From a bacterium (GTDB lineage Bacteria > Patescibacteriota > Minisyncoccia > Minisyncoccales > JAUYFS01): DNA of 40,756 bases. Of this stretch, positions 7,382 to 40,330 are shown piece after piece. The translations under genes were made by a program, and so were the position numbers. The stretch lies in NCBI GenBank assembly GCA_030689665.1, contig JAUYFS010000002.1, forward strand, positions 1 through 40,756. The letters run 5' to 3'. The notes below the pieces were generated by a model, which was not told where the DNA came from, did not search any database, and saw only the letters and a program-made list of their open reading frames with translations. Numbering within the stretch: position 1 is the stretch's first letter; each line of letters begins with the position of its first letter.

Positions 7382-7389
7382 AGTTTTTT

Positions 7390-7504
7390 ACCCTCCCAAG
7401 TTTTTGACTTGGTTAAAAATGAATTATTGAAATATTAATTGTTGTTTGATTGTTTGAATTAGTTTTGTTAGTCATAATCGCCTTAGTCAAAAATTTGGGA
7501 GGGT
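7390..7504 (-). promoter_or_regulatory. Long-range hairpin in the rpoB-rpoC spacer; its 3' arm contains the rpoC Shine-Dalgarno sequence
   Basis: On the minus-strand RNA, ACCCTCCCAAATTTTTGAC (7504..7486) pairs with GTCAAAAACTTGGGAGGGT (7408..7390) at 18 of 19 positions around a loop of about 77 nt. The 3' arm is followed by AAAAAACT and then the rpoC ATG. Confidence 0.5.
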
Positions 7505-7513
7505 AAATTTAAT

Positions 7514-10500
7514 TTATTCTTCCGTTTCTTCGCTTTCTTTCCTCTCTATTTGAACGCTAAATCCCATTGCCTTTAATTCATTGACTAACAAATTAAATGA
7601 TGCTGGTATCCCAGGGCCTTTGATTGGTTCCCCTTTTAAAATAGCTTCATAAACAGCCGACCTTCCAGGAACATCGTCTGATTTATAGGTAAGCATTTCC
7701 TGTAAAATATGCGCCGCTCCGTGCCCTTCCAAAGCCCAGACCTCCATTTCTCCAAATCTCTGTCCTCCGAATTGCGTTTTTCCGCCCAATGGCTGCTGGG
7801 TTATTAAAGAATAGGGACCGATAGACCTTGCGTGAATTTTATCTTCAACCATATGAATCAGCTTCATAATATACATATAGCCAACCGTGATTCTTTCTGA
7901 AAATGGCTCGCCGGTCCTTCCATCATAAAGAGTAACCTTGCCGTCTTCGGGAAGACCCGCTTCTTTCAATTCTTTTTTAATATCTGCTTCGTTGGCTCCC
8001 AAAAGAGAAGGGGATATTGCGATATAATTTAATTTTTTTGCGGCATAGCCAAGATGAGTTTCCAGAATTTGGCCCAAGTTCATTCTTGAGGCAACGCTAA
8101 TGGGATTTAAAATTATATCAACCGGCGTGCCGTCTTCCAAAAATGGCATTTCTTCATCAGGTAAAATTTTTGAAATAACGCCCTTGTTCCCGTGCCTGCC
8201 AGCTAATTTATCTCCGGCCTTAATTTTTCTTATTTGGGCGATTTCTATTTTTATTCTTTTTAAAGTTCCCGGCTCTAATTTATGGCCTGTTTCTTTTGAA
8301 AAAACTTTTATCCCAATTACTCTTCCTTTTTTCCCGTGAGGCAAAAGTAGGGAGGTATCTTTTATTTCTCTGGCTTTTTCTCCAAATATTGCCCTGAGAA
8401 GACGCTCTTCCGGAGTCAAATCAGTTTCTCCCTTTGGAGCGATTTTGCCAACTAGAATATCATTGGGTTTAACTTCCGCTCCAATTCTTATAATTCCTTC
8501 TTCATCCAGGTCTTTTAAGCGTTCCTCTCCAATGTTTGGAATATCAGGAGTGGTTATTTCAGGGCCTAATTTTGTTTCCCTTACATCGCAGGTAAAATCT
8601 TCAATGTGAATTGAAGTAAATTTGTCATTTTTTACCAAGCTTTCAGAAAGAACAATGGCATCTTCAAAATTATTTCCCCTCCAAGACATAAAAGCAACTA
8701 ACAAATTGTGCCCCAAAGCCAAACGACCATCAACAACAGCAGCGCCATTGGTTAAAATGTCGCCTTTTTTAATTTTCTGCCCCTTTTGAACTCTGGGCGT
8801 TTGACGCAAACAAGTATATTGGTTTGTTCTGATAAAATTATCCAATTTATGTTCTTCAATATTACCTCCTCCCTTTATTTTTATTCTTGAGGAATCAATT
8901 TCAACCACATTTCCGTCAATTCCGGAAATTGCGACTAATCCCGAATCACGCGCCACGTTTCTCTCAACGCCAGTTCCGACTAACGGAACATCGGGATTAA
9001 TCAAAGGAACTGCCTGCCTCTGCATATTTGAACCCATCAAGGCCCTGTTGGCGTCGTCGTTTTGGAGAAAAGGAATTAAAGAAGTTGCAATGGAAATAGC
9101 CAGTTTTGAAGAAACGTCTGCATAATCAACCTTTTCTTTTTCAATTTCTCTTGGCTCTCCCTTTACTCTCGCCTCAACTCTTTCTGGAATTATTCTCATT
9201 TTGTCGTCCAAGGGAACGCCGGCATGAACAATAATGTATTTTTCTTCCTCGTAAGCGCTTAAATAATGAATCTCCTGCAATACCTTTCCTTTTTCAACTT
9301 TAAAATATGGGGTCTCCAAAAATCCCATTTCGTTAATTTTGGCAAATGTTGCCAAGTGGCCAACCAAACCAACGTTTCCTCCTTCCGGAGTTTGTATCGG
9401 ACAAATTCTTCCGTAGTGGGACGGCTGAACGTCACGAACCTCAAAGCCAGCCCTTTCTCTGGTTAAACCTCCCGGACCGGTTGAAGTAAGAGTTCTTTTG
9501 TGCTCAACTTCTGCCAAAGGATTTTCACTATCCATAAATTGCGCCAACTGAGATGAAGTGAAAAATTCTTTTACAACCATTCCAAAAGTTCTCGGATTTA
9601 TTAATAAAGACGTGGTTATTCCTTGGGGGTCAACCGTAGACATTCTGTCTTTTATAATTCTTTCCATTCTCATCAAGCCAATCCTCAAGCGATTTTCTAA
9701 AAGGTCTGAAATTGTCTTTACCCTTCTGTTGCCCAAATGGTCAATTTCGTCTGGTTGGGAATACGGGGTGTTGTTAAGTTTGATTATTTCCCTGATTGAC
9801 CTTACGATGTCTTCTTTTCCCAAAATCCTTTCTTCGGGGCTTATTTTCACCTTTTTACCCTTTCCCACTTCTTTTTCCGGATAAAGACGCAGCCAAATTT
9901 TCCAACGCCCGACTCTTGAAAGGTCATATCTGCTGAAATTAAAAAATAAATTTTCTATGAATTCTCTGGCTGTTTCCGGAGTAACCAATTCTCCCGGCCT
10001 TAATTTATGATAAATTCCGACCAATGCTTCCAATTCGTTTTGTTCCGGGTCTTTTTCCAGAGTTTTCTCAATAAATTTAATTTCTTTGTTCGTATCAACA
10101 TCTTTGAATAAGTTTTTTATTTCCTCATTTTTAAAACCAAAAGCTTTTAAAAGAGTGGTTGCCGTCACCTTTCTTTTTCTGTCTATTTTTACCCAAATAA
10201 CACCCGCGGAATCAGTGTCAAATTCCAACCAAGCGCCCCTATTGGGAATTATTCTGACTCCGAAAAAGTTTTTGTTTCCGTATTTTTCGGCAACAAAAAA
10301 ACAACCCGGAGACCTAACGAGTTGAGAAACAATCACTCTCTCAACGCCGTTAATAATAAAGGTTGCTTTTTCAGTCATCAAAGGAAAATCGCACAGAAAA
10401 ACTTCCTGTTCTTTTGATTTTCCGGTTTTTAAATCAGTTAATTTTGTTTTTACTTTTAAAGGCGCTTCGTAAGAATCATCGTTGCTTTTTGCTTCAATTT

Positions 10501-10717
10501 CGGAAATATAATTCGGTTTTCCCAGCTTATAATCCAAAAACGACAATTCGTATTCTTTGCCGGCATAATCACGCATTGGCGAAAATTCTTTGAATAATTC
10601 TCTTAAAGTTTCATCCCAAAATCTTTTCCAGCTTTCTTTTTGATGGCTGATTAAATACGGGGTGGTAAAAGAATAAACTTTGGATTTTGAGAAATTTTTT
10701 ACCTTAATTGAATCCAT
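7514..10717 (-). CDS. rpoB: DNA-directed RNA polymerase subunit beta
   Basis: 1067 aa. Conserved segments include GRHGNKGVISKI, QRFGEMEVWALEGHGAA and FMDSENPLAEVEHKRTLT. Confidence 0.97.
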   Translation of the reverse strand: MDSIKVKNFSKSKVYSFTTPYLISHQKESWKRFWDETLRELFKEFSPMRDYAGKEYELSFLDYKLGKPNYISEIEAKSNDDSYEAPLKVKTKLTDLKTGKSKEQEVFLCDFPLMTEKATFIINGVERVIVSQLVRSPGCFFVAEKYGNKNFFGVRIIPNRGAWLEFDTDSAGVIWVKIDRKRKVTATTLLKAFGFKNEEIKNLFKDVDTNKEIKFIEKTLEKDPEQNELEALVGIYHKLRPGELVTPETAREFIENLFFNFSRYDLSRVGRWKIWLRLYPEKEVGKGKKVKISPEERILGKEDIVRSIREIIKLNNTPYSQPDEIDHLGNRRVKTISDLLENRLRIGLMRMERIIKDRMSTVDPQGITTSLLINPRTFGMVVKEFFTSSQLAQFMDSENPLAEVEHKRTLTSTGPGGLTRERAGFEVRDVQPSHYGRICPIQTPEGGNVGLVGHLATFAKINEMGFLETPYFKVEKGKVLQEIHYLSAYEEEKYIIVHAGVPLDDKMRIIPERVEARVKGEPREIEKEKVDYADVSSKLAISIATSLIPFLQNDDANRALMGSNMQRQAVPLINPDVPLVGTGVERNVARDSGLVAISGIDGNVVEIDSSRIKIKGGGNIEEHKLDNFIRTNQYTCLRQTPRVQKGQKIKKGDILTNGAAVVDGRLALGHNLLVAFMSWRGNNFEDAIVLSESLVKNDKFTSIHIEDFTCDVRETKLGPEITTPDIPNIGEERLKDLDEEGIIRIGAEVKPNDILVGKIAPKGETDLTPEERLLRAIFGEKAREIKDTSLLLPHGKKGRVIGIKVFSKETGHKLEPGTLKRIKIEIAQIRKIKAGDKLAGRHGNKGVISKILPDEEMPFLEDGTPVDIILNPISVASRMNLGQILETHLGYAAKKLNYIAISPSLLGANEADIKKELKEAGLPEDGKVTLYDGRTGEPFSERITVGYMYIMKLIHMVEDKIHARSIGPYSLITQQPLGGKTQFGGQRFGEMEVWALEGHGAAHILQEMLTYKSDDVPGRSAVYEAILKGEPIKGPGIPASFNLLVNELKAMGFSVQIERKESEETEE

Positions 10718-10740
10718 AAAAAGTAATTAATTTTTTAGAA

Positions 10741-10780
10741 CAAAACAAAAAACCCAAAAATAGCCCCCTTCTTTTGGGTT
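10741..10780 (-). terminator. Intrinsic terminator-like hairpin between gyrA and rpoB (possible attenuator)
   Basis: Minus strand reads AACCCAAAA-GAAGGGGGCTAT-TTTTGGGTT: a 9-bp stem and 12-nt loop, followed by TTTTGTTTTG. It lies downstream of the promoter-like site at 10859..10886 and 23 nt upstream of the rpoB ATG. Confidence 0.6.
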
Positions 10781-10858
10781 CACCTAAATTTATTTATTTA
10801 ATTTTTTACCATAGAAATAAAAAATCAAAGAAAACCAAACTTTTAACGATTAACTTAA

Positions 10859-10886
10859 ATTATAACTGAAAGAAAAAATTTGTCAA
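10859..10886 (-). promoter_or_regulatory. Consensus sigma70-type promoter upstream of rpoB
   Basis: Minus strand has TTGACA (10886..10881), a 16-nt spacer, then TATAAT (10864..10859). Both hexamers match consensus perfectly. Confidence 0.55.
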
Positions 10887-10910
10887 TAGATTTTTTCAAG
10901 GGGGTAAAAA

Positions 10911-13900
10911 CTAGATGCAGACAGCCGAGGCAATCTGGTCTCCCGCCTTAAATTTCATAACTCTCACACCCCTCGCCATTCTTCCTAAAATTGAAATTGA
11001 TTTCAGTTCTGTTTTTATGACTTGCCCCTTTTTGGAAATAATAACCAAATCTTCTTCATTTTCTAAAATTTTGGCAAAAACTATTTCCCCTGTTTTTTCG
11101 TTAACCTTTAATGTGATAACGCCGGAACCGCCGCGCGACTGAATTCTGTAATTGCTTAATTTAACTTTTTTCCCAGACCCATTGCTTGTCAAAATCAAAA
11201 GATTTTCTTTTTGAATTTTTTCCTTGACAATATCCTGAATCGCCACCACCTCGTCATTGGGCGCCAATTTTATTCCTCGAACCCCGGAAGAAACCCTTCC
11301 CATAGTCCTGATTTCTTTTTCTTTAAACCTTATTGACTTGCCTTTTTTGGTAATTATTATCAATTCATCTCCCTTTTCAACCCTTACAACCTGCTTTAAT
11401 AAATCGTCCTTAAGCAATTTTATCGCTTTGATTCCGGTTCTCCTTACATTTTCAAAATCAATTTGCGCCGTTTTTTTGACAATGCCCTTTTTGGTCACCA
11501 TTGCCAAAAAACTGTCTGTTTCGCTTCCTTTTTTAACAGGAATCAAAGAAAGGACTTTTTCTTCAGGGCTAATCTCCAAAAAATTCATCAAACCCCTGCC
11601 CTTTGAAATTCTGCTGCCCTCAGGAATTTCATAGATATTTGTTTTAAACGCTTTTCCCGAATCCGTGAAAACCAACAAACTGTCTCTGGCTGAAGCCAAA
11701 GCAAAATGTTCCACCATGTCTTCTTCGCTGGTTTTCAAGCCAATCATACCCTTTCCGCCTCTTTTTTGAACTTTGTAGGTAGAAGGATTTATTCTTTTTA
11801 TGTAGCCGTCTTTGGTAAGAATAATAATCGTTTCTTCGTCAGGAATTAATTCCTCATCGCTTATTTCCCCGGCTTTTTGGCTTACAACTTTTGTTCTTCT
11901 CGGGCCGCCGTATTTTTCTTTTATTTCAAAAAGTTCGTCTTTCACCACTTTGTATATTTTTTTCTCGTTCTTCAAAATCTCCGTCCATTCTTTTATTTGT
12001 TTTAATTTCAATTCCAGCTCTTCCTTTATTTTTTCCCTTTCCAAGCGCGCCAAGCTCTGAAGTTTCATTTCCAAAATCGCATTGGATTGAATTTCGGTCA
12101 GTTTAAATTGTTTCATTAAATTAATCTTGGCATCGTCCCTGCTTTTTGACGCTTTTATGGTTTTGATAATCGCGTCTATTTTATTTAAGGCCTTGTCCAA
12201 ACCCTCTAAAATATGAACTCTTTCTTTGGCTTTGTTTAATTCATATTGAATTCTTCTGGTTATAACTTCCTTCCTGTGAGAAATAAAAAATGAAAGCGCT
12301 TCTTTTAAAGACAAAACCCTCGGCTGGATTCCATCAACCAAAGCCAGCAAATTAAGGTGAAAATTTTTCTGAAGGTCAGTGTATTTGTAAAAACTGTTTA
12401 AAATTCTTTGGGGCAATGCCTCTGGTTTCAATTCAATCATTATTCTCATTCCGTCTTTATCTGATTCGTCTCTTATGTCTTTTATTCCTTGCAGTTTTTT
12501 GTTTTCAACCAATTTTGCCATTTGCTCCAACAAACCGCTTTTTTCCACTTGAAAAGGAATTTCGGAAATTATAATTTGCTGGCGTCCTGTTTTCGTTTCT
12601 TCTACTTCCGCCTTTCCTCTCATTAATATCGGACCCTTGCCCTGAGAAAACGCTTTGATGATTTCTTTTTTATCAAAAATAAACCCGCCTGTCGGAAAAT
12701 CAGGACCTTGAACGAATTTAAATAAATCTTCGGTAGTGGCTTCCGGATTATCAATTAGAAAAGAAGTGGCGTCAACCAATTCGCTCAAATTATGGGGCGG
12801 AATATTGGTCGCCATTCCAACGGCAATTCCAGTAGCGCCGTTCAAAAGAAGCCCGGGAACAGCGGCAGGCAAAACAATCGGCTCTTTTCTTGTAGCGTCA
12901 TAATTGTCCCTAAAATCAACTGTTTCTTTCGCTATGTCTTTTAAAAGTTCTTCGCCAACCTTGGAAAGTTTTGCTTCGGTATAACGCTGCGCTGCCGGAG
13001 GGTCTCCGTCAATTGAATTATGCGCGAAAATACCAGCGCTTAAAGCAAAATTATGAGTGCCTTCTATTGTTAAATCATAAACATCTGCCGATTCCCCTAA
13101 AAATTCTTTTCTTGAAACTTTGTGGTTTCCATTAATGCTGCACAATAAATAATTAATGTCATTATTATAATATTTTTTAATTCCTAGGTCCCAACCGGTA
13201 AAACTCTTTATTTTAAAAATTGCCTTCCTGATATTTTCATAATTTTCTTTATCCAAAGACAAATTATTATCCTTTAAATAGTGGCATATCTTTTCAAACT
13301 TCTTTCTGCCCGTTAAATTTGTCTCTCTTTTCTTATTTGAATTAACTATCTTTTCGTGAAAAAACTGTTTATATTCAGGAATCCCCCAAAGCCTTTTTAG
13401 GGTAGCCGACGCTCGCTTGCTTATTTCTTTTATCTTTTCTGGATGTAATTCCAAATATCTTTTTGTGCTTTCCCTCAACATCTCAACCATTTTCTCCCTG
13501 TATTCCTGCTTTTCCCAATTTTTACGGTTCCTTAACGACAATCTTTCGGCATAGGATTTCCTATTTTTTAAATCCTCCCAAAACAGTTTTCTTCCCAATG
13601 CAAGCTTTTCTCTATATTCTTTGTCTGTCTTGTGTTTTTCGGATATAAAATTGTAATGGGTTTGCCAATGTTCTTTCCAATCCATTCTAGCTATATTTTC
13701 TGGATTATTGTTTAGTTTATTAAAATCCAGATGATGCCTTATCCTGCCCTTTTTTCTTTCATAAACTTTGTTTAATATATTATATTCATCTGATAAAATG
13801 TGGATAAAATCCCAAAGATTTGAAGACTGTTGAAAAACCATGGTATAACCATTCATATTGGGATCATCTTCCCTGGTTGAACTTCTAAAATAGCAGGGCA

Positions 13901-14555
13901 TTAACGAATCTCCTTTTTCCAGATTTTTTGCCTCTCTGTATTCCCCGTTCTTTAACATGAATTTATGATCCAGCGTACATTTAATTTCCTCACCATTGTC
14001 CAAAACTATTTTCATTATTTCCGCATACTTTGTTTTCCTTGGATATTTTATTTCCGCAATTTTAATTTTTCCGTCGCTATCAACAGTAAAAGTATAATTT
14101 TTCTTGCCTTGTTTATGTTCTTCTATCAGCTCTAAAAAAGACGCGTCTCTTCCGTCGGTTAGTTTAACCTTAGTTTCACCCGTAAAACAACCAAAATTTC
14201 CTTGGCCAATAATCAAAGGATATCTCATTGAAAAATCCTGCGCCATTCTAACCAATGCTTCATAAACAGACGCGTCCCCGTGAGGATGATACTTTCCCAA
14301 AACATCACCGGTAACAGCCGCTGATTTTCTGAATTTAGCGGACGAAGCCAAGCCCATATCGTGCATCGCGAAAAGAATTCTTCTGTGAACCGGTTTTAGC
14401 CCGTCTCTGACATCAGGCAAGGCGCGGGAAACGATAACGCTCATCGCGTAATCCAAGTAAGAATCTTTCATCTCTTTCACGATTTCAACTTGCTGGATTT
14501 GAGAATCTATATTTTGTTTGATATTTTTTATATCCTCTTCTTTTTCTTTTGGCAT
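10911..14555 (-). CDS. gyrA: DNA gyrase subunit A, interrupted by an in-frame intein (exteins about 823 aa)
   Basis: 1214 aa. N-extein reads ...GKYHPHGDASVYEALVRMAQDFSMRYPLIIGQGNFG. C-extein reads SIDGDPPAAQRYTEAKL... with the catalytic Tyr in QRYTE. C-terminal beta-pinwheel repeats are present. Confidence 0.95.
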   Translation of the reverse strand: MPKEKEEDIKNIKQNIDSQIQQVEIVKEMKDSYLDYAMSVIVSRALPDVRDGLKPVHRRILFAMHDMGLASSAKFRKSAAVTGDVLGKYHPHGDASVYEALVRMAQDFSMRYPLIIGQGNFGCFTGETKVKLTDGRDASFLELIEEHKQGKKNYTFTVDSDGKIKIAEIKYPRKTKYAEIMKIVLDNGEEIKCTLDHKFMLKNGEYREAKNLEKGDSLMPCYFRSSTREDDPNMNGYTMVFQQSSNLWDFIHILSDEYNILNKVYERKKGRIRHHLDFNKLNNNPENIARMDWKEHWQTHYNFISEKHKTDKEYREKLALGRKLFWEDLKNRKSYAERLSLRNRKNWEKQEYREKMVEMLRESTKRYLELHPEKIKEISKRASATLKRLWGIPEYKQFFHEKIVNSNKKRETNLTGRKKFEKICHYLKDNNLSLDKENYENIRKAIFKIKSFTGWDLGIKKYYNNDINYLLCSINGNHKVSRKEFLGESADVYDLTIEGTHNFALSAGIFAHNSIDGDPPAAQRYTEAKLSKVGEELLKDIAKETVDFRDNYDATRKEPIVLPAAVPGLLLNGATGIAVGMATNIPPHNLSELVDATSFLIDNPEATTEDLFKFVQGPDFPTGGFIFDKKEIIKAFSQGKGPILMRGKAEVEETKTGRQQIIISEIPFQVEKSGLLEQMAKLVENKKLQGIKDIRDESDKDGMRIMIELKPEALPQRILNSFYKYTDLQKNFHLNLLALVDGIQPRVLSLKEALSFFISHRKEVITRRIQYELNKAKERVHILEGLDKALNKIDAIIKTIKASKSRDDAKINLMKQFKLTEIQSNAILEMKLQSLARLEREKIKEELELKLKQIKEWTEILKNEKKIYKVVKDELFEIKEKYGGPRRTKVVSQKAGEISDEELIPDEETIIILTKDGYIKRINPSTYKVQKRGGKGMIGLKTSEEDMVEHFALASARDSLLVFTDSGKAFKTNIYEIPEGSRISKGRGLMNFLEISPEEKVLSLIPVKKGSETDSFLAMVTKKGIVKKTAQIDFENVRRTGIKAIKLLKDDLLKQVVRVEKGDELIIITKKGKSIRFKEKEIRTMGRVSSGVRGIKLAPNDEVVAIQDIVKEKIQKENLLILTSNGSGKKVKLSNYRIQSRGGSGVITLKVNEKTGEIVFAKILENEEDLVIISKKGQVIKTELKSISILGRMARGVRVMKFKAGDQIASAVCI
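13017..14189 (-). mobile_element. GyrA intein (391 aa) with an HNH-type homing endonuclease insert
   Basis: Starts with Cys (CFTGETKVKL, TGT at 14189..14187). Block B is CTLDHKF. C-terminal blocks are VYDLTIEGTHNFALSAGIFAHN, with the Asn codon at 13019..13017 followed by Ser+1. The central HNH signature is IRHHLDFNKLNNNPENIARMDWKEHWQTH. No LAGLIDADG motifs were seen. Confidence 0.87.
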
Positions 14556-25266: not shown

Positions 25267-25560
25267 TTAATTCCTTTGCCCGGTAGTAGAGCCGCCGAAG
25301 GCGGCTCTACTACCGGGGTTCGACTTTTTCTTTGGTTGAGATTCTAATATCTTTTCCATGGGACAAAATCCCTTTAAACTTTTGTGGGAAAAATAATTCC
25401 AGGTATCGTTAGCAATTTCAAGTATCCGATTTAATTCTTCAATGCCTTGTCCTCTATCAAAAATTGAAACAACCCTCATTAAATCGTCACTATCCTTTTC
25501 ATGGTAAATAATATCTTTTATGTGTTCTATCGTGAAAGGACTATTGATTTCTTTCAACAT
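25267..25560 (-). CDS. Hypothetical small protein (97 aa as tracked); its C-terminal tail is encoded by a GC-rich palindrome
   Basis: ATG start 27 nt downstream of the TPR gene stop. The last 17 residues (PGSRAAFGGSTTGQRN) are translated from the palindrome at 25279..25317. Confidence 0.5.
   Translation of the reverse strand: MLKEINSPFTIEHIKDIIYHEKDSDDLMRVVSIFDRGQGIEELNRILEIANDTWNYFSHKSLKGFCPMEKILESQPKKKSNPGSRAAFGGSTTGQRN
25279..25317. repeat. Perfect 18-bp-stem GC-rich palindrome
   Basis: cccggtagtagagccgcc-gaa-ggcggctctactaccggg. It is a GC-rich island in AT-rich surroundings. Confidence 0.85.
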
Positions 25561-27366: not shown

Positions 27367-27514
27367 TGCGGGACTAGGCCACCTTCGCCAAGGCTACGGC
27401 GAGCCAAGGGATTCGAAGGTGTTACTCTTTGTCCGCCTCCATTTTTACAAATTTCGGCGGGATAAAGCGTATTTTGCTTCGCAAAATACGGGGGCTAGGT
27501 TCTCGCCACAGTCC
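27367..27514. repeat. Direct repeat copy B (148 bp), between tRNA-Gln and the NYN promoter region
   Basis: See copy A. Its promoter-proximal end (CCTAGTCCCGCA on the minus strand) matches 11 of the last 12 nt of the adjacent tRNA-Gln (CCTAGTCCGGCA). Confidence 0.92.
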
Positions 27515-27561
27515 AGCAAGGACCAAATTTTAATATCGCAAGATATTAAAATTTGTTCTTG

Positions 27562-27632
27562 CTGCCGGACTAGGATTCGAACCTAGATTAACAGGGCCAG
27601 AACCTGTCGTCCTACCGTTAGACGATCCGGCA
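27562..27632 (-). tRNA. tRNA-Gln (anticodon CTG)
   Basis: Minus strand reads TGCCGGA TC GTCT AACGGTA GGAC G ACAGG TTCTGGC CCTGT TAAT CTAGG TTCGAAT CCTAG TCCGGCA G. It has the U1-A72 pair and G73 typical of bacterial tRNA-Gln. No encoded CCA. Confidence 0.9.
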
Positions 27633-29234: not shown

Positions 29235-30252
29235 TTATAATTTTATCTCAGTTGCAATGAATTTGTCCAAGTCGCCGTCCAAAACCAAATCTAATTGCCT
29301 GTTCTCAACCTTTGTTCTGTGATCTTTTACCAGTTGGTAAGGATGAAAAACATATGACCTTATCTGCTGGCCCCAAGTTGCCGCGCTCTTGCCCTTCATT
29401 TTTAACAGTTCTTTTTCTTTTTTTTCTTCTTCAGTTTGCAGCAATTTTGCTTTCAAAATTTTCAGCGCTCTTTCTTTGTTCGCTCCCTGGCTTCTCTCAT
29501 TTTGACAACTGACCACGATTCCTGTCAGCAAATGAACTATTCTGATTGCGCTTTCCCTTTTATTCACGTATTGACCGCCAGGCCCTGATGCTCTGAAGGT
29601 GTCAATTCTTAAATCATCGGGCTTTATTTCCACATTTTTCACATCTCCTAAGTCCGGAATTACCTCCACTGACGCAAAAGAGGTGTGCCTTAATTTTTTG
29701 GCTGAAAACGGCGAAATCCTTACTAATCTATGAACCCCTGCCTCGCCTTTTAAAATACCGTAGGCAAAATTCCCCCTTACTTCAAAAATTATATTTTTTC
29801 TTCCAACCCTGTCCTCAACTCGCGCTTCGGTAAAAGTTTCGTCTAAAACCCTGTATTTAAATCCTTTTTTTTCAAAAAATCTGCTGAACATCCGCGTTAA
29901 AATTGAAACCCAATCTTCCGCGTCTTGGCCGCCGGTTCCTGATTTAATTGTCAAAAAAGCATTTTCTCTGTCAAATTTTTTGCGCAAATAAAAATAAATT
30001 TCCTGCTCTTTAATTTCCTTGTTTAATTTTTCAATTTTTTCGCCAATTTCTAATTTTATTCCCTCGTCCTTATCCGCTAATTCGAAAATTTCTTCAATTA
30101 ATTCGCTTTCTTTTTGCCAATTATTTAGATAATCAACAAGAATTTTGCTTTGAAAGTCGTTTTTTTCAATTCTTTCAATGTCAAAGACACTGGTTTAATT
30201 GTCCCAAATGGTTTTTCAAATCTATGATTTTTTGCGATAAATCTTTTTCCAT
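29235..30252 (-). CDS. prfB: Peptide chain release factor 2, requiring a programmed +1 frameshift
   Basis: The ATG at 30252 opens MEKDLSQKIIDLKNHLGQLNQCL, followed by an in-frame TGA (30183..30181) in the canonical context CTT TGA C. The +1 frame continues DIERIEKNDF... into tracked ORF 29235..29987, which carries the SPF (RISPFSA) and GGQ (SGPGGQYVNK) motifs. Confidence 0.92.
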
Positions 30253-30272
30253 AGTTTTAAATTTGGCTTCTG

Positions 30273-30303
30273 TGCTTCATGTTTCATGCCTTGTTTCATG
30301 TCC
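30273..30303 (-). promoter_or_regulatory. Cluster of CATGAAAC / CATGAAGC octamers upstream of prfB
   Basis: Minus strand reads GGACATGAAACAAGGCATGAAACATGAAGCA, ending 21 nt upstream of the prfB ATG. Compare 16301..16334. Confidence 0.3.
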
Positions 30304-30380
30304 TGCATTTCTTTTTGAGCCGAGGAGAGGAATTGAACCCCCAACCACTCCGATAAGCGCAAGCGCTATCGGAGTGATCT

Positions 30381-30496
30381 GCTTCTCCCGCCAAGTTTTG
30401 CCAGAGCCAGCGGTCGGGGTCGAACCGACGACCTACGGTTTACGATACCGTTGCTCTACCGGCTGAGCTACGCTGGCAAAACTTGGCGGGAGAAGC
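30381..30496. repeat. Perfect 24-bp inverted repeat flanking, and overlapping by 5 nt, tRNA-Thr
   Basis: gcttctcccgccaagttttgccag (30381..30404) is the exact reverse complement of ctggcaaaacttggcgggagaagc (30473..30496). The latter includes the first 5 nt of the tRNA. Confidence 0.93.
30405..30477 (-). tRNA. tRNA-Thr (anticodon CGT)
   Basis: GCCAGCG TA GCTC AGCCGGTA GAGC A ACGGT ATCGTAA ACCGT AGGTC GTCGG TTCGACC CCGAC CGCTGGC T. All four stems are fully paired. No encoded CCA. Confidence 0.93.
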
Positions 30497-30608
30497 TGCC
30501 GCCCCGTTTTACGGGGCGAGCCTCGCCCTTTTAAGGCGGAAGCTACCTTGGCGGTGCGGGATATGGGAATCGGATTGTGCTTGGTCCCGTAACAATTTTG
30601 CTCAGTTC

Positions 30609-30682
30609 TGGTGCGAGTAGCGGGAATTGAACCCGCGCCTCAAGCTTGGGAAGCTTACATCATGCCACTAGACTATACTCGC
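30609..30682 (-). tRNA. tRNA-Gly (anticodon CCC), CCA encoded
   Basis: GCGAGTA TAGTCTAGTGGCATGATG TAAGC TTCCCAA GCTTG AGGC GCGGG TTCAATT CCCGC TACTCGC A CCA. Confidence 0.92.
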
Positions 30683-30768
30683 AAAATTGAACGGGATCCT
30701 CTATTTTGTAATCCCGACAAATCGGGAACAAAATCGGGAACAGTCGCTGCCACTCAACTAATCCCGCC

Positions 30769-31173
30769 TTACTTAAAAATACCCTTTATTTTTTCAATAA
30801 TTCCGCCGGCCGGCGTCAAGGATTTAGAACCGTCTACTTCCTCAACTTCCACGCCCTCAATAACAACCGCATTCTCCCCTTGTTTTTGCAAGTTCAATTT
30901 TTCTCTCGCTTGCTCCTCAATAAAAACTTCTTTTTGAGTTTCATTGAATTGCGATTGAAGAGACGCTTTTTGATCCTCAAGTTTTCTGATTTCATTCGTT
31001 AATTTCAAAACCTTGTTCTCAAGTTGGGCTCGCCTGTTTATCATTTCAAAATTTTTAACAACAAGAAAAATAACTCCCAAAACCGCTAAAATAGAAATCG
31101 CTATCCCAATGTATTTTTTTGCTTCTTTTATTATTTTTCTGCCCTTTTGAGGAACGCTTTTTTTTGCTATCAT
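30769..31173 (-). CDS. ftsB: Septum formation initiator family protein (FtsB/DivIC-like)
   Basis: 134 aa. Single TM helix (IGIAISILAVLGVIFLVV), a coiled-coil (LENKVLKLTNEIRKLEDQKASLQSQ), then EEQAREKLNLQKQGENAVVI, typical of this family. Confidence 0.7.
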   Translation of the reverse strand: MIAKKSVPQKGRKIIKEAKKYIGIAISILAVLGVIFLVVKNFEMINRRAQLENKVLKLTNEIRKLEDQKASLQSQFNETQKEVFIEEQAREKLNLQKQGENAVVIEGVEVEEVDGSKSLTPAGGIIEKIKGIFK

Positions 31174-34581: not shown

Positions 34582-34583
34582 TG

Positions 34584-34925
34584 AACCGGGTGGGTTATAA
34601 GCCGGATTCTGTCGTCGATAAATCGGACTGGCAATCATTTTTCTGGTTCCGACATTGCTGTCGGAATCAAGCGGCCTACTTTTTTCTTCCGAAGAAGTTT
34701 GGCCTTGCACCCAAGTAAGGATTTAGCCGTTTCAATTCCGATGTTTCCATCGGAACTCACCCCAAAGGGTGTCCTGAATTTTTCAATTCAAGACGTCTCT
34801 GTTCGCACCTCTCATCTTGCGATGGACGGGAATTACCCGCTACCATTGCCCCAATTTTCATTAAAGCTAGGTGTCCGGACTTTCCTCTCCTGATAAATCA
34901 AGAGCGATTGCCTACCCACCCGGTT
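34584..34925 (-). ncRNA. rnpB: RNase P RNA, bacterial type A
   Basis: Minus strand contains the P4 halves GAGAGGAAAGTCCGGAC and ACAGAATCCGGCTTA, plus GCGAACAGAGAC, GGTGCAAGGCCAAA, and a P1 stem AACCGGGTGGGT / ACCCACCCGGTT. The ends are approximate. Confidence 0.9.
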
Positions 34926-35915: not shown

Positions 35916-36025
35916 ACCCTCCCAAATTTTTGTTTTTTCCAAAAAAGAAAGGGTGAATTTAATTTTTTTTAATTTTGGCATCGCCCCGCAATTTTGACTT
36001 GTATAAGTCAAAAACTTGGGAGGGT
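35916..36025 (-). promoter_or_regulatory. Composite hairpin upstream of ppaC; the SD arm has two alternative anti-SD partners
   Basis: Minus strand: ACCCTCCCAAGTTTTTGAC (36025..36007, inside the end of rnhA) pairs with the 3' arm CAAAAATTTGGGAGGGT (35932..35916). A second AAATTCACCCTTTC copy lies at about 35965..35952. A local hairpin TTTTGACTT-ATAC-AAGTCAAAA (36013..35992) competes for part of the distal arm. The 3' arm is followed by AAAAAACT and ATG. Confidence 0.45.
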
Positions 36026-36466
36026 GAATTTATTTTTTTGTTGGCTGTCTAATTCCTGATTTACTAGATAATCCGCCTCTTTATTTTCTTCCCTTGAAAT
36101 GTGTTTTATTTTGAAAACAGGAAGTTCAACTTTTAAATTCCAGGCCTCTAAAAATAATCTCTGGATTTCCGGGTCTAAAATTTTATATCTCCCGTTTAAT
36201 TGCTCCACCAAAAGCTGGGAATCGGAAAAAACTTCTATTTCCAGCTCTTTTATTTTTGCTTTTCCAAAAATCAATTTTATTTTTTTAAGGGCAAAAACAA
36301 GGGCGCTATATTCTGCTATATTATTGGTTTCTGTCCCCAGAAATTGGCTGTATTTTTTTATCGCATTCCCTTTTTGGTTTTTAATAACAACCCCAAGAGC
36401 TGCTGGACCGGGATTTCCTCTGGCCCCTCCGTCTATAAAAATTTCTATTTTTTCTTTTTTTGTCAT
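36008..36466 (-). CDS. rnhA: Ribonuclease HI
   Basis: 152 aa. IFIDGGARGNPGPAALGVVI, NNIAEYSAL, VFSDSQLLV and NKEADYL match the DEDD pattern. The start overlaps the upstream stop (ATGA). Confidence 0.85.
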   Translation of the reverse strand: MTKKEKIEIFIDGGARGNPGPAALGVVIKNQKGNAIKKYSQFLGTETNNIAEYSALVFALKKIKLIFGKAKIKELEIEVFSDSQLLVEQLNGRYKILDPEIQRLFLEAWNLKVELPVFKIKHISREENKEADYLVNQELDSQQKNKFTLPSF

Positions 36467-38788: not shown

Positions 38789-40330
38789 TTAAATAATCGG
38801 CCTGTCTAAAAAATCTTTTAAGGTTTCTTTTAATTTTTCAATTCTTGATTCCTTTTCTTTGTCTTCAATTCTTTCAACCCCCTTAAATCTTTCTTTCGGC
38901 GCTTCTTTGATTTCTTCGCTCTGCTGTCTTTTCATGCAAGATTTGCAATAAACGGGCAACCCGGGTTTGGGAAGAAACGGCACTTTTATTTTTTTGCCGC
39001 AAAGAACGCAGGTCGTATCGTAAAGATTAAAAGCAAGCGGCGCTTCCCCTCTGGTAACAATATCAGAAGCCCATCTTATTATTTTTTCTTCCACCTTTAA
39101 TCTGTTGGTGGCATATCTTTCTCTGCATGATTTTATTATTTTTTCTCTGTGTGAAGCTTCCGGAGCTTCAAAAAGCGGCAAAGAAGTGATTGAAAAGGGC
39201 CTGGTTGTGATTCCATTAACCATTACTTTCGCGCACATCTGGTATTTTGACAAATTAACCATATCAAGAACGGTAAATTCCGGGCTGAATTCTTTTTCTA
39301 AAAATTCCGCGTCTTCGGCGCCAACCCTAAAAATAACAAGACTGCCAACATTGCCAAAAACAGCGTCTTTCACTGACAATTCCATCTGGGTAATATATTG
39401 GTGGGCTAAAATTAAATTCAGCCGGTATTTTCTGGCTTCTGATAAAATATTGACAAAAGATTCCGTGGCAAAATTCTGAAATTCATCAACATATAAAAAG
39501 AAATCTTTTCTTTCTTCTTCTTTGACATTAACTCTGGACATCGCGGAAAATTGAAGTTTGGTGATTAAAAGAGCTCCCAGCAAACGGGACGCGTCTTCTC
39601 CGATTTTTCCTTTTGACAAATTGATTATCAAAATTTTTCCGTTGTCCATAACATCTCTCATGTCAAAAGAGGTCTTTACTTGACCGACAATGTTTCTGAT
39701 TAACGGAGAAGCTATAAACTGGCCAATTTTGTTTTGTATGGCCGCGGTTGCTTCCATTTCATATCTCTGCGTGTATCTGGCAAATTCTTTTTCCCAAAAC
39801 GCCCTGATAATCGGGTCTTTTAGTTTTTCGGTAACATCTTTTCTGAAATCCGGGTCTGAAAGCATTCTGTGAATTCCCAAAAGCGTTGAACCCTTGTATT
39901 CCAAAAGCGCCAAAATCGCATTGTTTAAAATATATTCCATTCTGGCTGACCAGACATCGGGCCAGATTTTTTTAAAAACACTCATCAGTCCGCTGGCAAC
40001 CAAATGCCGGTCTTCAACAGCGACATCTTCCATAATATTAAAAGCAATCGGGTATTCTATGTCAGCCGGATTTATGTAAATAACATCGTTTATTCTTTTA
40101 GCCGGAATATAGTCCAAAAGTTCTTCGCACGCTTCCCCGTGCGGGTCTAAAAAAGCCAAACCATGTCCGTTGCGAATATCTTGGATAGCCAGATTTTTTA
40201 TCAGCGTAGTTTTCCCGACTCCGGTTTTACCCATAACATAAAAATGCCTTCGGCGGTCATCCAATTTAATTCCGATTTTTTTCTGAACATCCCTGAAATT
40301 TGTTTTTCCAAAAAAAGTGATTTCTTCCAT
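38789..40330 (-). CDS. TraD/VirD4-like (type IV coupling protein-like) P-loop ATPase, no TM segment, with a C-terminal CxxC...CxxC zinc ribbon
   Basis: 513 aa. Walker A GKTGVGKTT, Walker B FFLYVDEFQNF, and ILAHQY. The zinc ribbon is CVLCGKKIKVPFLPKPGLPVYCKSC, followed by a charged tail. Confidence 0.78.
   Translation of the reverse strand: MEEITFFGKTNFRDVQKKIGIKLDDRRRHFYVMGKTGVGKTTLIKNLAIQDIRNGHGLAFLDPHGEACEELLDYIPAKRINDVIYINPADIEYPIAFNIMEDVAVEDRHLVASGLMSVFKKIWPDVWSARMEYILNNAILALLEYKGSTLLGIHRMLSDPDFRKDVTEKLKDPIIRAFWEKEFARYTQRYEMEATAAIQNKIGQFIASPLIRNIVGQVKTSFDMRDVMDNGKILIINLSKGKIGEDASRLLGALLITKLQFSAMSRVNVKEEERKDFFLYVDEFQNFATESFVNILSEARKYRLNLILAHQYITQMELSVKDAVFGNVGSLVIFRVGAEDAEFLEKEFSPEFTVLDMVNLSKYQMCAKVMVNGITTRPFSITSLPLFEAPEASHREKIIKSCRERYATNRLKVEEKIIRWASDIVTRGEAPLAFNLYDTTCVLCGKKIKVPFLPKPGLPVYCKSCMKRQQSEEIKEAPKERFKGVERIEDKEKESRIEKLKETLKDFLDRPII

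Follow-up and report, generated by a model that had tools for sequence, protein, structure and literature searches.

How a working tRNA gene comes to lie at the tip of a long perfect inverted repeat, itself enclosed by further GC-rich hairpins and a second T arm, is the question raised by a locus on the minus strand of a 40,756-nt stretch of DNA (the window) from a bacterium with a Parcubacteria-type (CPR) genome. The gene is a tRNA-Thr(CGU) at 30405..30477, called by ARAGORN as Thr(cgt) at 30404..30477 and given 66.4 bits by the Rfam tRNA model (RF00005), whose gathering score is 29. Its acceptor stem is GCCAGCG/CGCTGGC, its discriminator is U, CCA is not encoded, and the cloverleaf on its own folds at -31.2 kcal/mol in the energy model. 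The next gene downstream of the scaffold is prfB, a position that is conserved in relatives. The stretch from the prfB start (ATG, 30252..30250) to its +1 frameshift site (CTTTGAC, 30186..30180) occupies 30180..30252 on the minus strand, as placed by sequence and by alignment with relatives, and Pfam PCRF and RF-1 domains map to 29235..29987. All the sequence elements listed in a preliminary description of the locus are present on the minus strand, among them the exact inverted repeat of 24 bp and the tRNA-Thr(CGU), which is canonical. The reading that best accounts for them, to which we assign a probability of about 70%, is that of a Russian doll, in which a working, bracketed tRNA-Thr sits in the carcass of an older tRNA-Thr, and a neighbouring tRNA-Gly is nested likewise; the insert would then, with less confidence, be the nuclease-less remnant of a selfish cassette.

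The inverted repeat, here called the bracket, was delimited by an inverted-repeat search. Its 5′ arm, GCTTCTCCCGCCAAGTTTTGCCAG (30473..30496, minus strand), consists of the leader plus nucleotides 1-5 of the tRNA (GCCAG) and belongs to a bracket family designated F1, while its 3′ arm, CTGGCAAAACTTGGCGGGAGAAGC (30381..30404, minus strand), starts directly after the discriminator with a further copy of CTGGC. The arms are 24 nt each, 100% complementary and 68 nt apart; we calculate that chance would supply about 1e-8 perfect 24-mer repeats spanning no more than 200 nt in 40 kb. The duplex has a calculated energy of -49.4 kcal/mol. Competition between the bracket and the acceptor stem, as had been proposed, holds in the energy model, where the 24-bp bracket form reaches -73.1 kcal/mol and the cloverleaf with a 19-bp helix -65.6 kcal/mol. 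This preference of 7.5 kcal/mol for the form that disrupts the acceptor stem counts against the favoured reading. An RNase III-type processing stem, as proposed earlier, is plausible: the Thr bracket is a leader-trailer helix of about 20 bp or more with compensatory change. No rnc gene was identified in the window, which does encode an RNase P RNA (34582..34923). In L163 (relatives' loci are numbered with an L), the helix is 21 bp long, and both double changes relative to the window (G-C to A-T and T-A to C-G) preserve pairing. In the comparison of orthologous loci that had been suggested as a check, the outer scaffold is absent from L161, L164, L165 and L167, close relatives that share the prfB context.

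Sequence comparison shows the scaffold outside the bracket to be what is left of the tRNA-Thr(CGU) gene that held this place before, now dead and interrupted within the D arm (30552..30318, minus strand). A tRNA-Thr profile derived from 50 genes of relatives was run with nhmmer against the masked window, where its best match was 30348..30317 (profile positions 42-73, E 0.004). This match and comparison with L161 define the 3′ part of the relic (30318..30380, minus strand). It reads as a D-stem remnant CAGATC that is partly common to the bracket 3′ arm, an A, a stem CTCCG/CGGAG whose loop has been replaced by the palindrome ATAGCGCTTGCGCTTAT, a variable loop TGGTT, the T arm GGGGG-TTCAATT-CCTCT (30342..30326, described earlier as a T-arm look-alike and indeed present), the acceptor strand CCTCGGC and a discriminator T. 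The hairpin of about 31 nt that had been assigned to a variable arm is real (arms 30346-30355 and 30367-30376, -21.3 kcal/mol) but stands at the position of the anticodon arm. The relic 3′ end and its downstream flank match the intact, un-nested tRNA-Thr found at the same position in L161 (RF2 86% identical). That gene lies 2 nt after the same nested tRNA-Gly and ends GGTTGGAGGTTCAAGTCCTCTCCTCGGCTCC AAAAGAAA, where the window has GGTTGGGGGTTCAATTCCTCTCCTCGGCTC AAAAAGAAA. At its 3′ end the relic reads CCTCTCCTCGGCT, unlike the live tRNA-Thr, which has CCCGACCGCTGGCT there.

The 5′ part of the relic (30497..30552, minus strand) was assigned by pattern search and spacing. It comprises GCCAAGG-TA-GCTT, a pair of GC-rich hairpins where the D loop would be (30544..30519 and 30518..30500, the latter CGCCCCG-TAAAA-CGGGGCG at 30500-30518) and a D-loop remnant GGCAG, the last G of which (30496) belongs to the bracket 5′ arm as well. 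The GGCGAGG heptamer (30527..30521) does pair with CCTCGGC at 6/7 positions, as had been stated, but it is in the wrong register for a 5′ acceptor strand. The true start of the relic is probably GCCAAGGTAGCT at 30552..30541, which suits that place better. The tRNA-Thr 5′ consensus pattern GCCRNNNTRGCT matches the window only there and in the live tRNA (0.55 matches expected), and the start lies 2 nt past a relic tRNA-Gly, a tight Gly-Thr spacing also seen in relatives. The two parts stand in the correct order and orientation for one isoacceptor, and their arrangement places the cassette in the relic's D arm, after the D-loop GGCAG, not at the anticodon position formerly assigned to the 24-bp stem and its tRNA. 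GCAG occurs on both sides of the junction (GGCA[G CTTC...GAA GCAG]ATC), an ambiguous 4-nt duplication, whereas the junctions of L132 and L106 have none.

The relic has lost its anticodon loop (in favour of the palindrome) and its D arm, its acceptor stem is mismatched, and neither ARAGORN, including its intron mode, nor Rfam calls it. The region was not assigned to any other known family, as ARAGORN and the Rfam covariance models called only tRNAs and left the scaffold unmatched. Beyond tRNA, no Rfam family was significant in 30200-30800 (E up to 10) or in six related loci (E up to 0.1). A tRNA-Sec, allo-tRNA or tmRNA-like scaffold (8/5 acceptor/T geometry, long D stem) was also considered; it has no Rfam support at E up to 10 and is superseded by the L161 orthology. 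The idea of a degraded tRNA into which tRNA-Thr was inserted, one of several offered before, is supported by the profile match (E 0.004), the L161 orthology and cleanly nested genes in L132, L106 and L030.

The same evidence bears on chance and on artefact. The region as a whole folds far better than shuffled sequences (z = -8.97), profile matches fall at the expected places, and a chance stacking of hairpins is excluded because of the profile match, the L161 orthology and the clean nested cases elsewhere. The supposed local family of GC-rich hairpins dissolves on inspection, since only three perfect GC-rich hairpins occur in 40 kb; that count also disposed of the idea that the window holds dispersed hairpins of a REP- or MITE-like kind. 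Mis-assembly of strain variants in a metagenome might be suspected from the contigs of L163, L166 and L197, which break within repeated tRNA segments. The architecture, however, recurs in independent assemblies and samples (NCBI, JGI, ENA, Logan). L197, an independent assembly, is 100% identical to the window over 2976 nt, L030 equals L110, and L161 matches L162 across the locus, each of these two pairs coming from separate samples. The probability that artefact or coincidence explains the locus is very small.

The neighbouring tRNA-Gly(CCC) repeats the pattern. The live gene (30609..30682, minus strand; ARAGORN, Rfam 67.6 bits) encodes CCA and is nested like the tRNA-Thr. Its bracket, of a family designated F3, consists of a 5′ arm TCCCGTTCAATTTTGC (30681..30696, minus strand, found by the inverted-repeat search) and a 3′ arm GCAAAATTGTTACGGGA (30585..30601, minus strand), with a duplex energy of -22.8 kcal/mol. 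The F3 bracket is also present in L161 and L030 with compensatory changes, those between the window and L030 (C-G to A-T and T-A to C-G) preserving pairing. Around it lie the 5′ part of a relic tRNA-Gly(CCC), GCGGGATTAGTTGAGTGGCAGCGACTGTTCCCGA (30734..30767, minus strand; profile positions 1-22, E 0.08), which runs through the anticodon loop, and a 3′ part, CCAAG...TCCGATTCCCATATCCCGCA (30555..30584, minus strand; profile positions 52-70, E 0.22). These are the best and second-best tRNA-Gly profile matches in the masked window and stand in the correct order around the live gene. The 5′ part is also found in L161, and the 3′ part is conserved in L161 and L163. A tRNA-Gln relic downstream of the live tRNA-Gln, visible by eye, was set aside for want of profile-search support.

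Nesting of this kind is not confined to the window. In L132 and L106 the outer tRNA-Thr is split at AGA|GC of the D stem into halves that are exactly complementary; in L030, tRNA-Gly profile positions 1-33 and 34-71 enclose a bracket together with a live tRNA that represents another allele; and in L098 and L045 the split falls within the anticodon. Sequence comparison shows that, among the close relatives of the window, some keep the ancestral gene without nesting, some hold another inner allele, and some have a three-layered nest. L163 (RF2 92%) has the same bracket family around a different inner allele, and the 3′ end of its shell is identical to the window's live tRNA-Thr over 30 nt. L166 (RF2 79%) has three layers, and a plain gene is found in L165, with 86% identity to L166. 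The layout of the window shell matches the shells of L163 and L166, and its middle resembles theirs and not the L161 ortholog. Shell decay differs from lineage to lineage, the shell hairpin of L163 being on the way out (-6.9 kcal/mol). Given different inner alleles, a triple nest and plain genes among relatives, turnover must be fast, and the comparisons indicate that turnover of tRNA genes by nested replacement recurs in these tiny bacteria. Alleles would be displaced in series (X to Y to Z), with L166 a possible case of Y′ to X to Y′. Neither nested bacterial tRNA genes nor tRNA-bracketing repeats in CPR turned up in literature searches, in agreement with the preliminary statement that no such bacterial arrangement had been described. 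A motif, ATAAACTCC, common to the L132 and L106 shells and the prfB coding sequence was judged a coincidence because its match count is near our chance estimate.

Could the shell instead be functional? Such a reading would have the outer halves joined by the remaining helix of about 19 bp after tRNA excision, as a two-piece RNA (for example a prfB regulator or a processing or decoy substrate), or would make the shell a spliced, intron-containing tRNA. The shell T arm can pair, 6/7 of the acceptor stem is paired, and hairpin insertions are confined to loops, like the expansion segments of functional RNAs. Moreover, the anticodon-loop hairpins are conserved between L132 and L106 (24/26 positions) and among the window, L166 and L163, and the location beside prfB is conserved. 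Yet the window shell lacks an anticodon loop and a D arm, shells vary widely, four relatives have none, and the L163 hairpin is decaying. No bulge-helix-bulge, group I intron or other Rfam match was found. By eye, the junctions of the window, L132, L106 and L030 have no 3-4-3 bulge-helix-bulge, only a continuous helix or internal loops, and the shells of the window, L132 and L106 with the insert removed form no CGU anticodon loop. An intron-containing tRNA was tried with ARAGORN, allowing introns up to 400 nt, and only plain tRNAs were returned for the window and 11 relatives. The giant tRNA-like or two-piece RNA of the preliminary description thus goes unsupported, with no anticodon loop or D arm, lineage-specific decay and no Rfam family, and a functional composite RNA appears very improbable.

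Brackets themselves track nested genes. Bracket-like hairpins adjoin tRNAs in all loci sampled, and strong brackets, found at 17 of 163 sampled tRNAs (about 10%), occur only with nested or replaced tRNA genes. All seven of the strongest leader-trailer duplexes among 92 tRNA-Thr/Gly loci are nested cases (7/7). The association of brackets with relics was established by going through the top cases by hand; when bracket strength was compared automatically with the presence of a relic, p was only 0.04, degenerate relics, including the window's, falling below the E-value cut-off in the larger database. Family F1 is also present in L163 and L166 and is related to the hp1 hairpins of elements that carry a GIY-YIG nuclease gene. 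Its sequence type, TCCCGCC...GGCGGGA, is seen again in distant Parcubacteria within split tRNA-Gly genes. Bracket families are common to tRNA-Gly and tRNA-Thr and to genomes with about 55% RF2 identity, and one arm is 21/21 identical in L106 and L166, whose RF2 proteins share only 54% identity. Such strong conservation could also reflect selection on an RNA instead of horizontal spread.

With regard to the nuclease, L108, L198, L200, L203 and L205 have the order shell tRNA-Gly 5′ half (1-35), hairpin TCCGCC...GGCGGA, second hairpin, CAAGG, GIY-YIG ORF and live tRNA-Gly, followed in L200, L203 and L205 by the shell tRNA-Gly 3′ half. The ORF encodes 90 aa that match Pfam PF01541 (E 1e-12). L022 has the order tRNA-Gln, GIY-YIG and an 18-nt duplicate of the tRNA 3′ end. 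The GIY-YIG elements found so far concern tRNA-Gly and tRNA-Gln, not tRNA-Thr, and their live tRNA lies outside the hairpin. A group I intron holding the GIY-YIG ORF and tRNA was considered and dropped, Rfam being empty in L198, L200, L203 and L205. The 90-aa protein has a catalytic domain only, so that sequence-specific homing is conjectural. In the window, a Pfam search of about 29 ORFs (a set apart from the three longest, 3695-14555) detected no integrase, transposase or nuclease gene, and tblastn with 88 queries found no GIY-YIG remnant in the 40 kb. As no such gene was found there, mobility of the window copy is argued from relatives, and since the nuclease gene was detected in relatives but not here, this copy would be only a degenerate or non-autonomous member. 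Mosaic shells and fast allele turnover would be indirect signs of site-specific cleavage of the empty allele and of gene conversion. Carriage of the cassettes by phages was also looked for in IMG/VR, where matches to bracket arms were no more than chance: one arm had 0 matches in viral contigs, and a window-type arm had 29, 0 of them with the partner arm.

Two rival readings were weighed. In the first, the nest arose in situ: slippage during replication, or a switch of template, placed a second copy of the tRNA gene inside the first, and quasi-palindrome template switching then lengthened the natural inverted repeats of the dead tRNA (those of its acceptor, D, anticodon and T arms) into long perfect hairpins, the 24-bp bracket among them. 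The bracket 3′ arm is indeed an inverted copy of the local leader plus tRNA nucleotides 1-5, each shell hairpin coincides with an arm or loop of the tRNA, L132 has nearly identical inner and outer copies, and no mobility gene was found among the window ORFs scanned. What speaks against it is that inner and outer alleles differ in the window, L030, L106, L163 and L200, that bracket families, with the 21/21 arm, span both isoacceptors and genomes of about 55% RF2 identity, that nuclease genes lie physically within homologous split tRNAs, and that the middle of the window shell is like L163/L166 and not like its L161 ortholog. An origin in situ is therefore considered unlikely. In the second, genomic islands or prophages used a classical integrase to enter tRNA-Thr at its 3′ end, pushed the former 3′ segment aside and were deleted afterwards, so that fragments stayed beside an intact gene. 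L011, L029, L089 and L022 have tandem 3′ duplicates with the same sequence as the live 3′ end, which would fit such scars, and integrating elements are well documented to leave fragments of tRNA genes behind (PMC9897764, PMC3293823). But upstream 5′ fragments are present too (window, L132, L106, L030, L045 and L098), the halves in the clean cases are exactly complementary without an overlapping att core, the window's relic 3′ end is unlike that of the live tRNA, no integrase was found in the window or the loci, and the inverted-repeat bracket is left unexplained. Scars of integrases have a low probability, under one in ten.

Under the nested-replacement reading, the bracket and its tRNA are somewhat more probably than otherwise the nuclease-less remnant of a Parcubacteria selfish cassette family. 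The cassette would enter a tRNA gene in a loop or arm by a break, by recombination or by both, with conserved tRNA segments serving as homology arms, and the damage would be compensated by the full replacement tRNA that it carries; autonomous-looking relatives would bear the 90-aa GIY-YIG nuclease gene. For the RNA the odds are about even that the repeat forms a 19-24 bp helix in the transcript that is opened or cut before the tRNA is released. The transcript probably runs from a DivIC gene through the two tRNAs to prfB. In this model the helix would insulate the live tRNA from the homologous dead halves and would be opened, or cut in an RNase III-like manner, ahead of release by RNase P and RNase Z, the shell pieces being by-products. 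More tentatively, and at slightly less than even odds, the locus may belong to an undescribed class of selfish elements of Parcubacteria (CPR), hairpin-bracketed cassettes whose homing targets are loops in tRNA genes that are essential and single-copy, and which bring a complete replacement tRNA instead of splicing. Autonomous members would encode the GIY-YIG protein of about 90 aa, serial invasions would yield nested genes and displace competing alleles, and the bracket would be both recognition structure and processing helix.

Several known systems resemble the locus in part. Integrating elements leave partial tRNA genes as attL/attR duplicates (PMC9897764, PMC3293823). As there, a working gene lies beside fragments of the same isoacceptor, the invader restores function, and repeated events leave serial fragments. 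Here, however, the locus carries a complete tRNA gene, not a 3′ segment alone, lodged within the D arm or the anticodon loop of its predecessor with 5′ and 3′ relics on its flanks, and it has a long inverted-repeat bracket and no integrase. SegB of phage T4 is a GIY-YIG homing endonuclease encoded in a tRNA gene cluster, and it promotes inheritance of its own tRNA region (PMC2330249). Common to both systems are the physical linkage of a GIY-YIG gene to tRNA genes (in relatives of the window) and the preferential inheritance of a linked tRNA allele with co-conversion of neighbouring sequence, suggested here by the mosaic shell. SegB, of about 220 aa and with a DNA-binding region, replaces alleles and leaves no nested carcass, whereas the present proteins have about 90 aa, the hosts are cellular CPR bacteria, the target is left as two halves, and the window copy is nuclease-less.

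Disrupted tRNA genes of archaea include non-canonical introns, split and tri-split tRNAs and mobile tRNA introns (PMC3293823, PMC10714607). Points in common are breaks that fall in the D arm, in the anticodon loop or in the T loop, flanks that are complementary and rich in GC, and a proposed link to mobile elements. Archaeal pieces, though, are rejoined at bulge-helix-bulge motifs by a splicing endonuclease, whereas in the bacterial case the outer pieces are dead, the inserted gene functions and no such motif was seen. In rRNA operons, leader-trailer helices are cut by RNase III as processing stems. The bracket is like them a long perfect helix formed by the flanks of a structured RNA, with compensatory changes and, at 19-24 bp, the length of an RNase III substrate; unlike them it is limited to nested or replaced tRNA genes and overlaps the acceptor stem, and we know of no such arrangement for single bacterial tRNAs. 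MITEs are likewise short (about 116 bp for the cassette) and non-autonomous, with perfect terminal inverted repeats (24/24 nt complementary here) and a possible 4-bp target duplication (GCAG). The cassette differs in its functional tRNA cargo, in a repeat that overlaps that cargo and in its occurrence only inside tRNA genes, with no dispersed hairpin copies in the 40 kb, and to our knowledge no transposase matches it.

Mobile elements are known to inhabit essential genes by self-splicing, as introns do, or by restoring only the 3′ end, as integrating islands do. If the present reading is true, bringing along a whole spare gene would be a third way for a mobile element to inhabit an essential RNA gene, and the locus would be the equivalent, in a bacterium, of disrupted archaeal tRNA genes, for which the link to mobile elements is still debated. 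It would also account for the GC-rich, tRNA-like clutter near tRNA genes of reduced CPR genomes, which can mislead annotation (orphan T arms, pseudo-tRNAs) and breaks assemblies. Finally, it leads to a prediction, open to test, of how tRNAs enclosed in long helices are processed, and it implies an unusually rapid turnover of tRNA alleles in organisms with minimal translation machinery.

A live tRNA gene, meaning an intact one, lies within a dead one twice in the window; this state is polymorphic in close relatives, and the helix formed by the inverted repeat that flanks the live gene (the bracket) is conserved. The host (window G+C ~36%) is a Parcubacteria/Paceibacteria-type CPR according to RF2-based searches (best 62% identity among species-level genomes). 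The minus-strand order is lepA, a DivIC-family gene, tRNA-Gly(CCC), tRNA-Thr(CGU), prfB, ftsE, ftsX and tRNA-Gln(CUG), and the order tRNA-Gly, tRNA-Thr, prfB, ftsEX, tRNA-Gln is kept in dozens of relatives. The gap between tRNA-Gly and tRNA-Thr is usually 2-14 nt in relatives, whereas it measures 131 nt in the window, with ~150 nt more between tRNA-Thr and the prfB start (30252); this extra DNA around tRNA-Thr is what the preliminary description had noticed. On the minus strand, prfB starts with the ATG at 30252..30250 (segment 30180..30252). CTTTGAC at 30186..30180 is its classical +1 frameshift site, and the post-shift frame is the long ORF at 29235..29987. Genes for a TrwB/TraG-like type IV coupling protein (38789..40330) and a small RNase H (RVT_3; 36008..36466) do not adjoin the tRNAs. 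A perfect palindrome at 25279-25317 (stem 16-18 bp, CCCGGTAGTAGAGCCGCC-TTC-GGCGGCTCTACTACCGGG) overlaps an ORF of 97 aa (25267..25560; no Pfam match) at its end.

The live tRNA-Thr(CGU) is at 30405..30477 on the minus strand (ARAGORN; Rfam 66.4 bits), and all the elements previously listed around it are present. The inverted repeat is exact over 24 nt (arms 30381-30404 and 30473-30496, 24/24 complementary), nucleotides 1-5 of the tRNA fall inside the 5′ arm, and CTGGC recurs after the discriminator. The suggested competition between this helix and the acceptor stem is borne out by the energy model, which scores the complete 24-bp helix at -73.1 kcal/mol and, less favourably, the cloverleaf with a 19-bp helix at -65.6 kcal/mol. 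A hairpin of 7-8 bp at 30500-30518, a hairpin of ~31 nt at 30346-30376 and a T-arm look-alike at 30342..30326 complete the set, and the fold of the region is much more stable than those of shuffled sequence (z = -8.97). The proposal that these elements are a chance stack from a local GC-rich hairpin family fails, because perfect GC-rich hairpins number only three across the 40 kb and there is no dispersed family to supply it.

Profiles made from relatives' genes (50 tRNA-Thr(CGU) and 30 tRNA-Gly(CCC)) were compared with the window after its three tRNAs had been masked. The top tRNA-Thr match was 30348..30317 (positions 42-73, E 0.004), and the two top tRNA-Gly matches, 30767..30746 (positions 1-22) and 30574..30556 (positions 52-70), lie correctly ordered on either side of the live tRNA-Gly. 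Two sites in the window carry the tRNA-Thr 5′ consensus GCCRNNNTRGCT: one is in the live gene, and the other, 30552..30541, lies 2 nt past the relic tRNA-Gly 3′ end. An ancestral tight tRNA-Gly/tRNA-Thr pair is therefore still visible, surviving as two carcasses with a live copy within each. Closer relatives, obtained through a protein database and compared by their contigs (loci designated L plus a number), were decisive. In L161 (RF2 86% identical) tRNA-Gly is nested as in the window and tRNA-Thr is plain and intact; at the 3′ end of this gene and in the flank beyond it L161 reads GGTTGGAGGTTCAAGTCCTCTCCTCGGCTCC AAAAGAAA, matching GGTTGGGGGTTCAATTCCTCTCCTCGGCTC AAAAAGAAA at the outer 3′ end in the window. 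Because of this match, the outer scaffold (hereafter the shell) is identified as the former resident tRNA-Thr gene, and the profile match and L161 orthology together favour one of the options originally offered, a degraded tRNA into which tRNA-Thr inserted. An assembly artefact is unlikely, as an independent assembly (L197) is identical to the window over 2976 nt and the same architectures are seen again across data sources.

The layout of the shell is clarified by L163 and L166, where the bracket's 3′ arm is followed by GTAGAGC-A-CTCCG, a 17-nt palindrome, CGGAG-AGGTY, and then the T arm and acceptor strand; the string parses as D-stem 3′ strand, position 26, anticodon stem, variable loop and T arm. 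The window counterpart is CAGATC-A-CTCCG-ATAGCGCTTGCGCTTAT-CGGAG-TGGTT-GGGGGTTCAATTCCTCT-CCTCGGC-T, and upstream the shell consists of GCCAAGG-TA-GCTT, two hairpins at the D-loop position, GGCAG and the bracket. Read against L163 and L166, the cassette (bracket plus tRNA) interrupts the D arm, a split found at the same place in L132 (GGCAGA / GCGACTG) and L106 (GGTAGA / GCAG). The 24-bp stem with tRNA-Thr had been assigned to the anticodon position and is relocated to the D arm by this layout; the supposed variable-arm hairpin takes the anticodon-arm position, and GGCGAGG, taken for an acceptor strand, belongs to a D-loop hairpin. The idea of a functional giant tRNA-like RNA is not supported, since the window's shell lacks an anticodon and a D arm and matches no Rfam family, its decay is lineage-specific, and the shell is missing in close relatives.

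The live tRNA-Gly(CCC) at 30609..30682 is itself nested. All on the minus strand, its 14-bp bracket with a small internal loop (30696..30681 and 30601..30585) lies between the 5′ part (30767..30734) and 3′ part (30584..30555) of a relic tRNA-Gly, the whole nest spanning 30553..30767; L161 and L163 share this build. An exact 12-nt tandem repeat on the plus strand at 30719-30742 (AAATCGGGAACA twice) duplicates the relic's anticodon-loop region (TGTTCCCGATTT); a small hairpin, TCCCGA-TTTG-TCGGGA, comes after it. Downstream of tRNA-Gln (27561..27632), the minus strand at ~27370..27560 has two bracket-family hairpins without a tRNA at the tip (CGTATTTTGC-GAA-GCAAAATACG and TCCCGCCGAAATTT..GGAGGCGGA) and T-loop-like and tRNA-Gln-3′-end-like strings (CCTAGTCCCGCAAC), read by eye only; a tRNA-Gln profile search detected no relic tRNA-Gln downstream of the live gene in the window.

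Within the clade sharing at least 74% RF2 identity, turnover of tRNA-Thr (alleles X, Y, Y′ and Z) is fast. The window (RF2 100%) has shell X with inner allele Y. L163 (92% to the window) has the window's bracket family around a new inner allele, Z, and over 30 nt the 3′ end of its shell is identical to Y, the live allele of the window. X is intact and un-nested in L161, three layers are seen in L166 (79%; Y′ holding X holding Y′), and the locus is plain in L164 (76%), L167 (74%) and L165 (79%), the last despite 86% identity to L166. In its middle part (stem CTCCG/CGGAG) the window's shell is like the L163 and L166 shells and unlike the L161 ortholog (ACGGT/ACCGT), as though a piece of a donor shell had arrived with the cassette.

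Nested loci also occur, mixed among plain ones, in lineages with only 53-60% RF2 identity, and orphan T-arm/acceptor fragments ending NNNNGGCTC adjoin live tRNA-Thr in many loci. Clean nests with exactly complementary halves are found in L132 (profile positions 1-22 and 37-73), L106 and L030 (= L110; 1-33 and 34-71), splits inside the anticodon in L098 and L045, and serial layers in L082 and L166. Integrase scars would account for tandem 3′ duplicates (L011, L029, L089), but they leave 5′ relics, exactly complementary halves and brackets unexplained. The leader-trailer duplexes of 92 unique tRNA-Thr/Gly loci have a median energy of -9.4 kcal/mol, and the seven strongest (-31 or lower) all belong to loci that proved nested on inspection. 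Strong brackets flank 17 of 163 unique tRNAs, some tRNA-Gln genes among them, and so the phenomenon is not confined to tRNA-Thr and tRNA-Gly; tRNA-Gln(CUG) genes with 12-18 bp leader-trailer brackets are at L007:6766-6837, L165:2843-2914 and L045:6415-6488.

Three bracket sequence families recur: F1 (CCCGCCAARTTTTGCC / GGCAAAAYTTGGCGGG), F2 (CCTGCCCGCCACAGCC.. / AGGCGTTGGCAGGCGGGGCAG) and, for tRNA-Gly, F3 (TCCCGTTCAATTTTGC / GCAAAATTGWTRCGGGA). In each the 5′ arm is C-rich, the 3′ arm is G-rich, and the arms reach 2-5 nt into the tRNA. In the 24-bp stem, double changes relative to L163 keep pairing (G-C to A-T, T-A to C-G), and double changes also preserve pairing in the tRNA-Gly bracket between the window and L030 (C-G to A-T, T-A to C-G). 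An F2 arm is identical (21/21) between L106 and L166, which share only 54% identity in RF2. In other shells (L132, L106, L108, L198, L200, L203, L205), the anticodon loop holds a hairpin that has the same base (TCCGCC...GGCGGA) but no tRNA at its tip.

Small GIY-YIG nuclease genes, encoding ~90 aa (catalytic domain only), lie within or beside split or duplicated tRNA-Gly and tRNA-Gln in several Patescibacteria. One architecture is common to five independent lineages (genes at L108:430-729, L198:1501-1776, L200:1501-1770, L203:1501-1776 and L205:1501-1779): a shell tRNA-Gly 5′ half (positions 1-35), the TCCGCC...GGCGGA hairpin and a second hairpin, a pair conserved in the old anticodon loop, then CAAGG, where the shell resumes, a 90-aa GIY-YIG ORF (Pfam PF01541, E 1e-12) and a live tRNA-Gly (of another allele in L200). 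In L200, L203 and L205 these are followed by the 3′ half of the shell (positions 36-76). In L022 the order is tRNA-Gln, GIY-YIG (3031-3240) and an 18-nt duplicate of the tRNA 3′ end. In L009 a 26-nt hairpin unit (CCCCAGAACCATACGGTTCGGGGTTGA) is repeated three times in tandem (7084-7165) between tRNA-Gln and a GIY-YIG gene (7205-7450), and a dense GC-rich hairpin array lies upstream of tRNA-Val (3148-3460). No GIY-YIG gene or remnant was found in the window. In-situ duplication of a tRNA gene with palindrome growth accounts for a local inverted copy and for hairpins at arm positions; it leaves the distinct alleles, shared bracket families and nuclease association unexplained. The closest precedent is T4 SegB, a homing endonuclease of the GIY-YIG type whose gene lies in a tRNA cluster and which promotes inheritance of the tRNA region to which it belongs (PMC2330249).

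At the DNA level, a cassette, originally with a nuclease gene, would enter a resident tRNA gene, either where the DNA is broken or by recombination that uses the conserved segments of the D arm and of the variable loop/T arm. Entry would kill the resident gene and the cassette would take over its function; the nuclease gene would be lost afterwards, and the cycle could repeat. At the RNA level, the window tRNAs are probably co-transcribed with their shells, because no promoter-like or terminator-like site was found on the coding strand from the DivIC-family gene to prfB. The bracket helix would stop the live tRNA from mispairing with the homologous dead halves, and its length suffices for an RNase III substrate. 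RNase P, whose RNA (bacterial class A, 151.9 bits) is encoded at 34582..34923 on the minus strand, would have to cut the bracketed precursor and, with RNase Z, would then finish the tRNA-Thr ends; RNase Z fits because tRNA-Thr has no encoded CCA. In line with the earlier statement that no such bacterial arrangement had been described, a full-text literature search found no description of nested bacterial tRNA genes or of tRNA-bracketing repeats in CPR. The principle of an element restoring the tRNA that it disrupts is already known; the apparent novelty lies in the form, in which a hairpin carries a whole tRNA within the gene that preceded it, with serial nests and a link to mini GIY-YIG genes.
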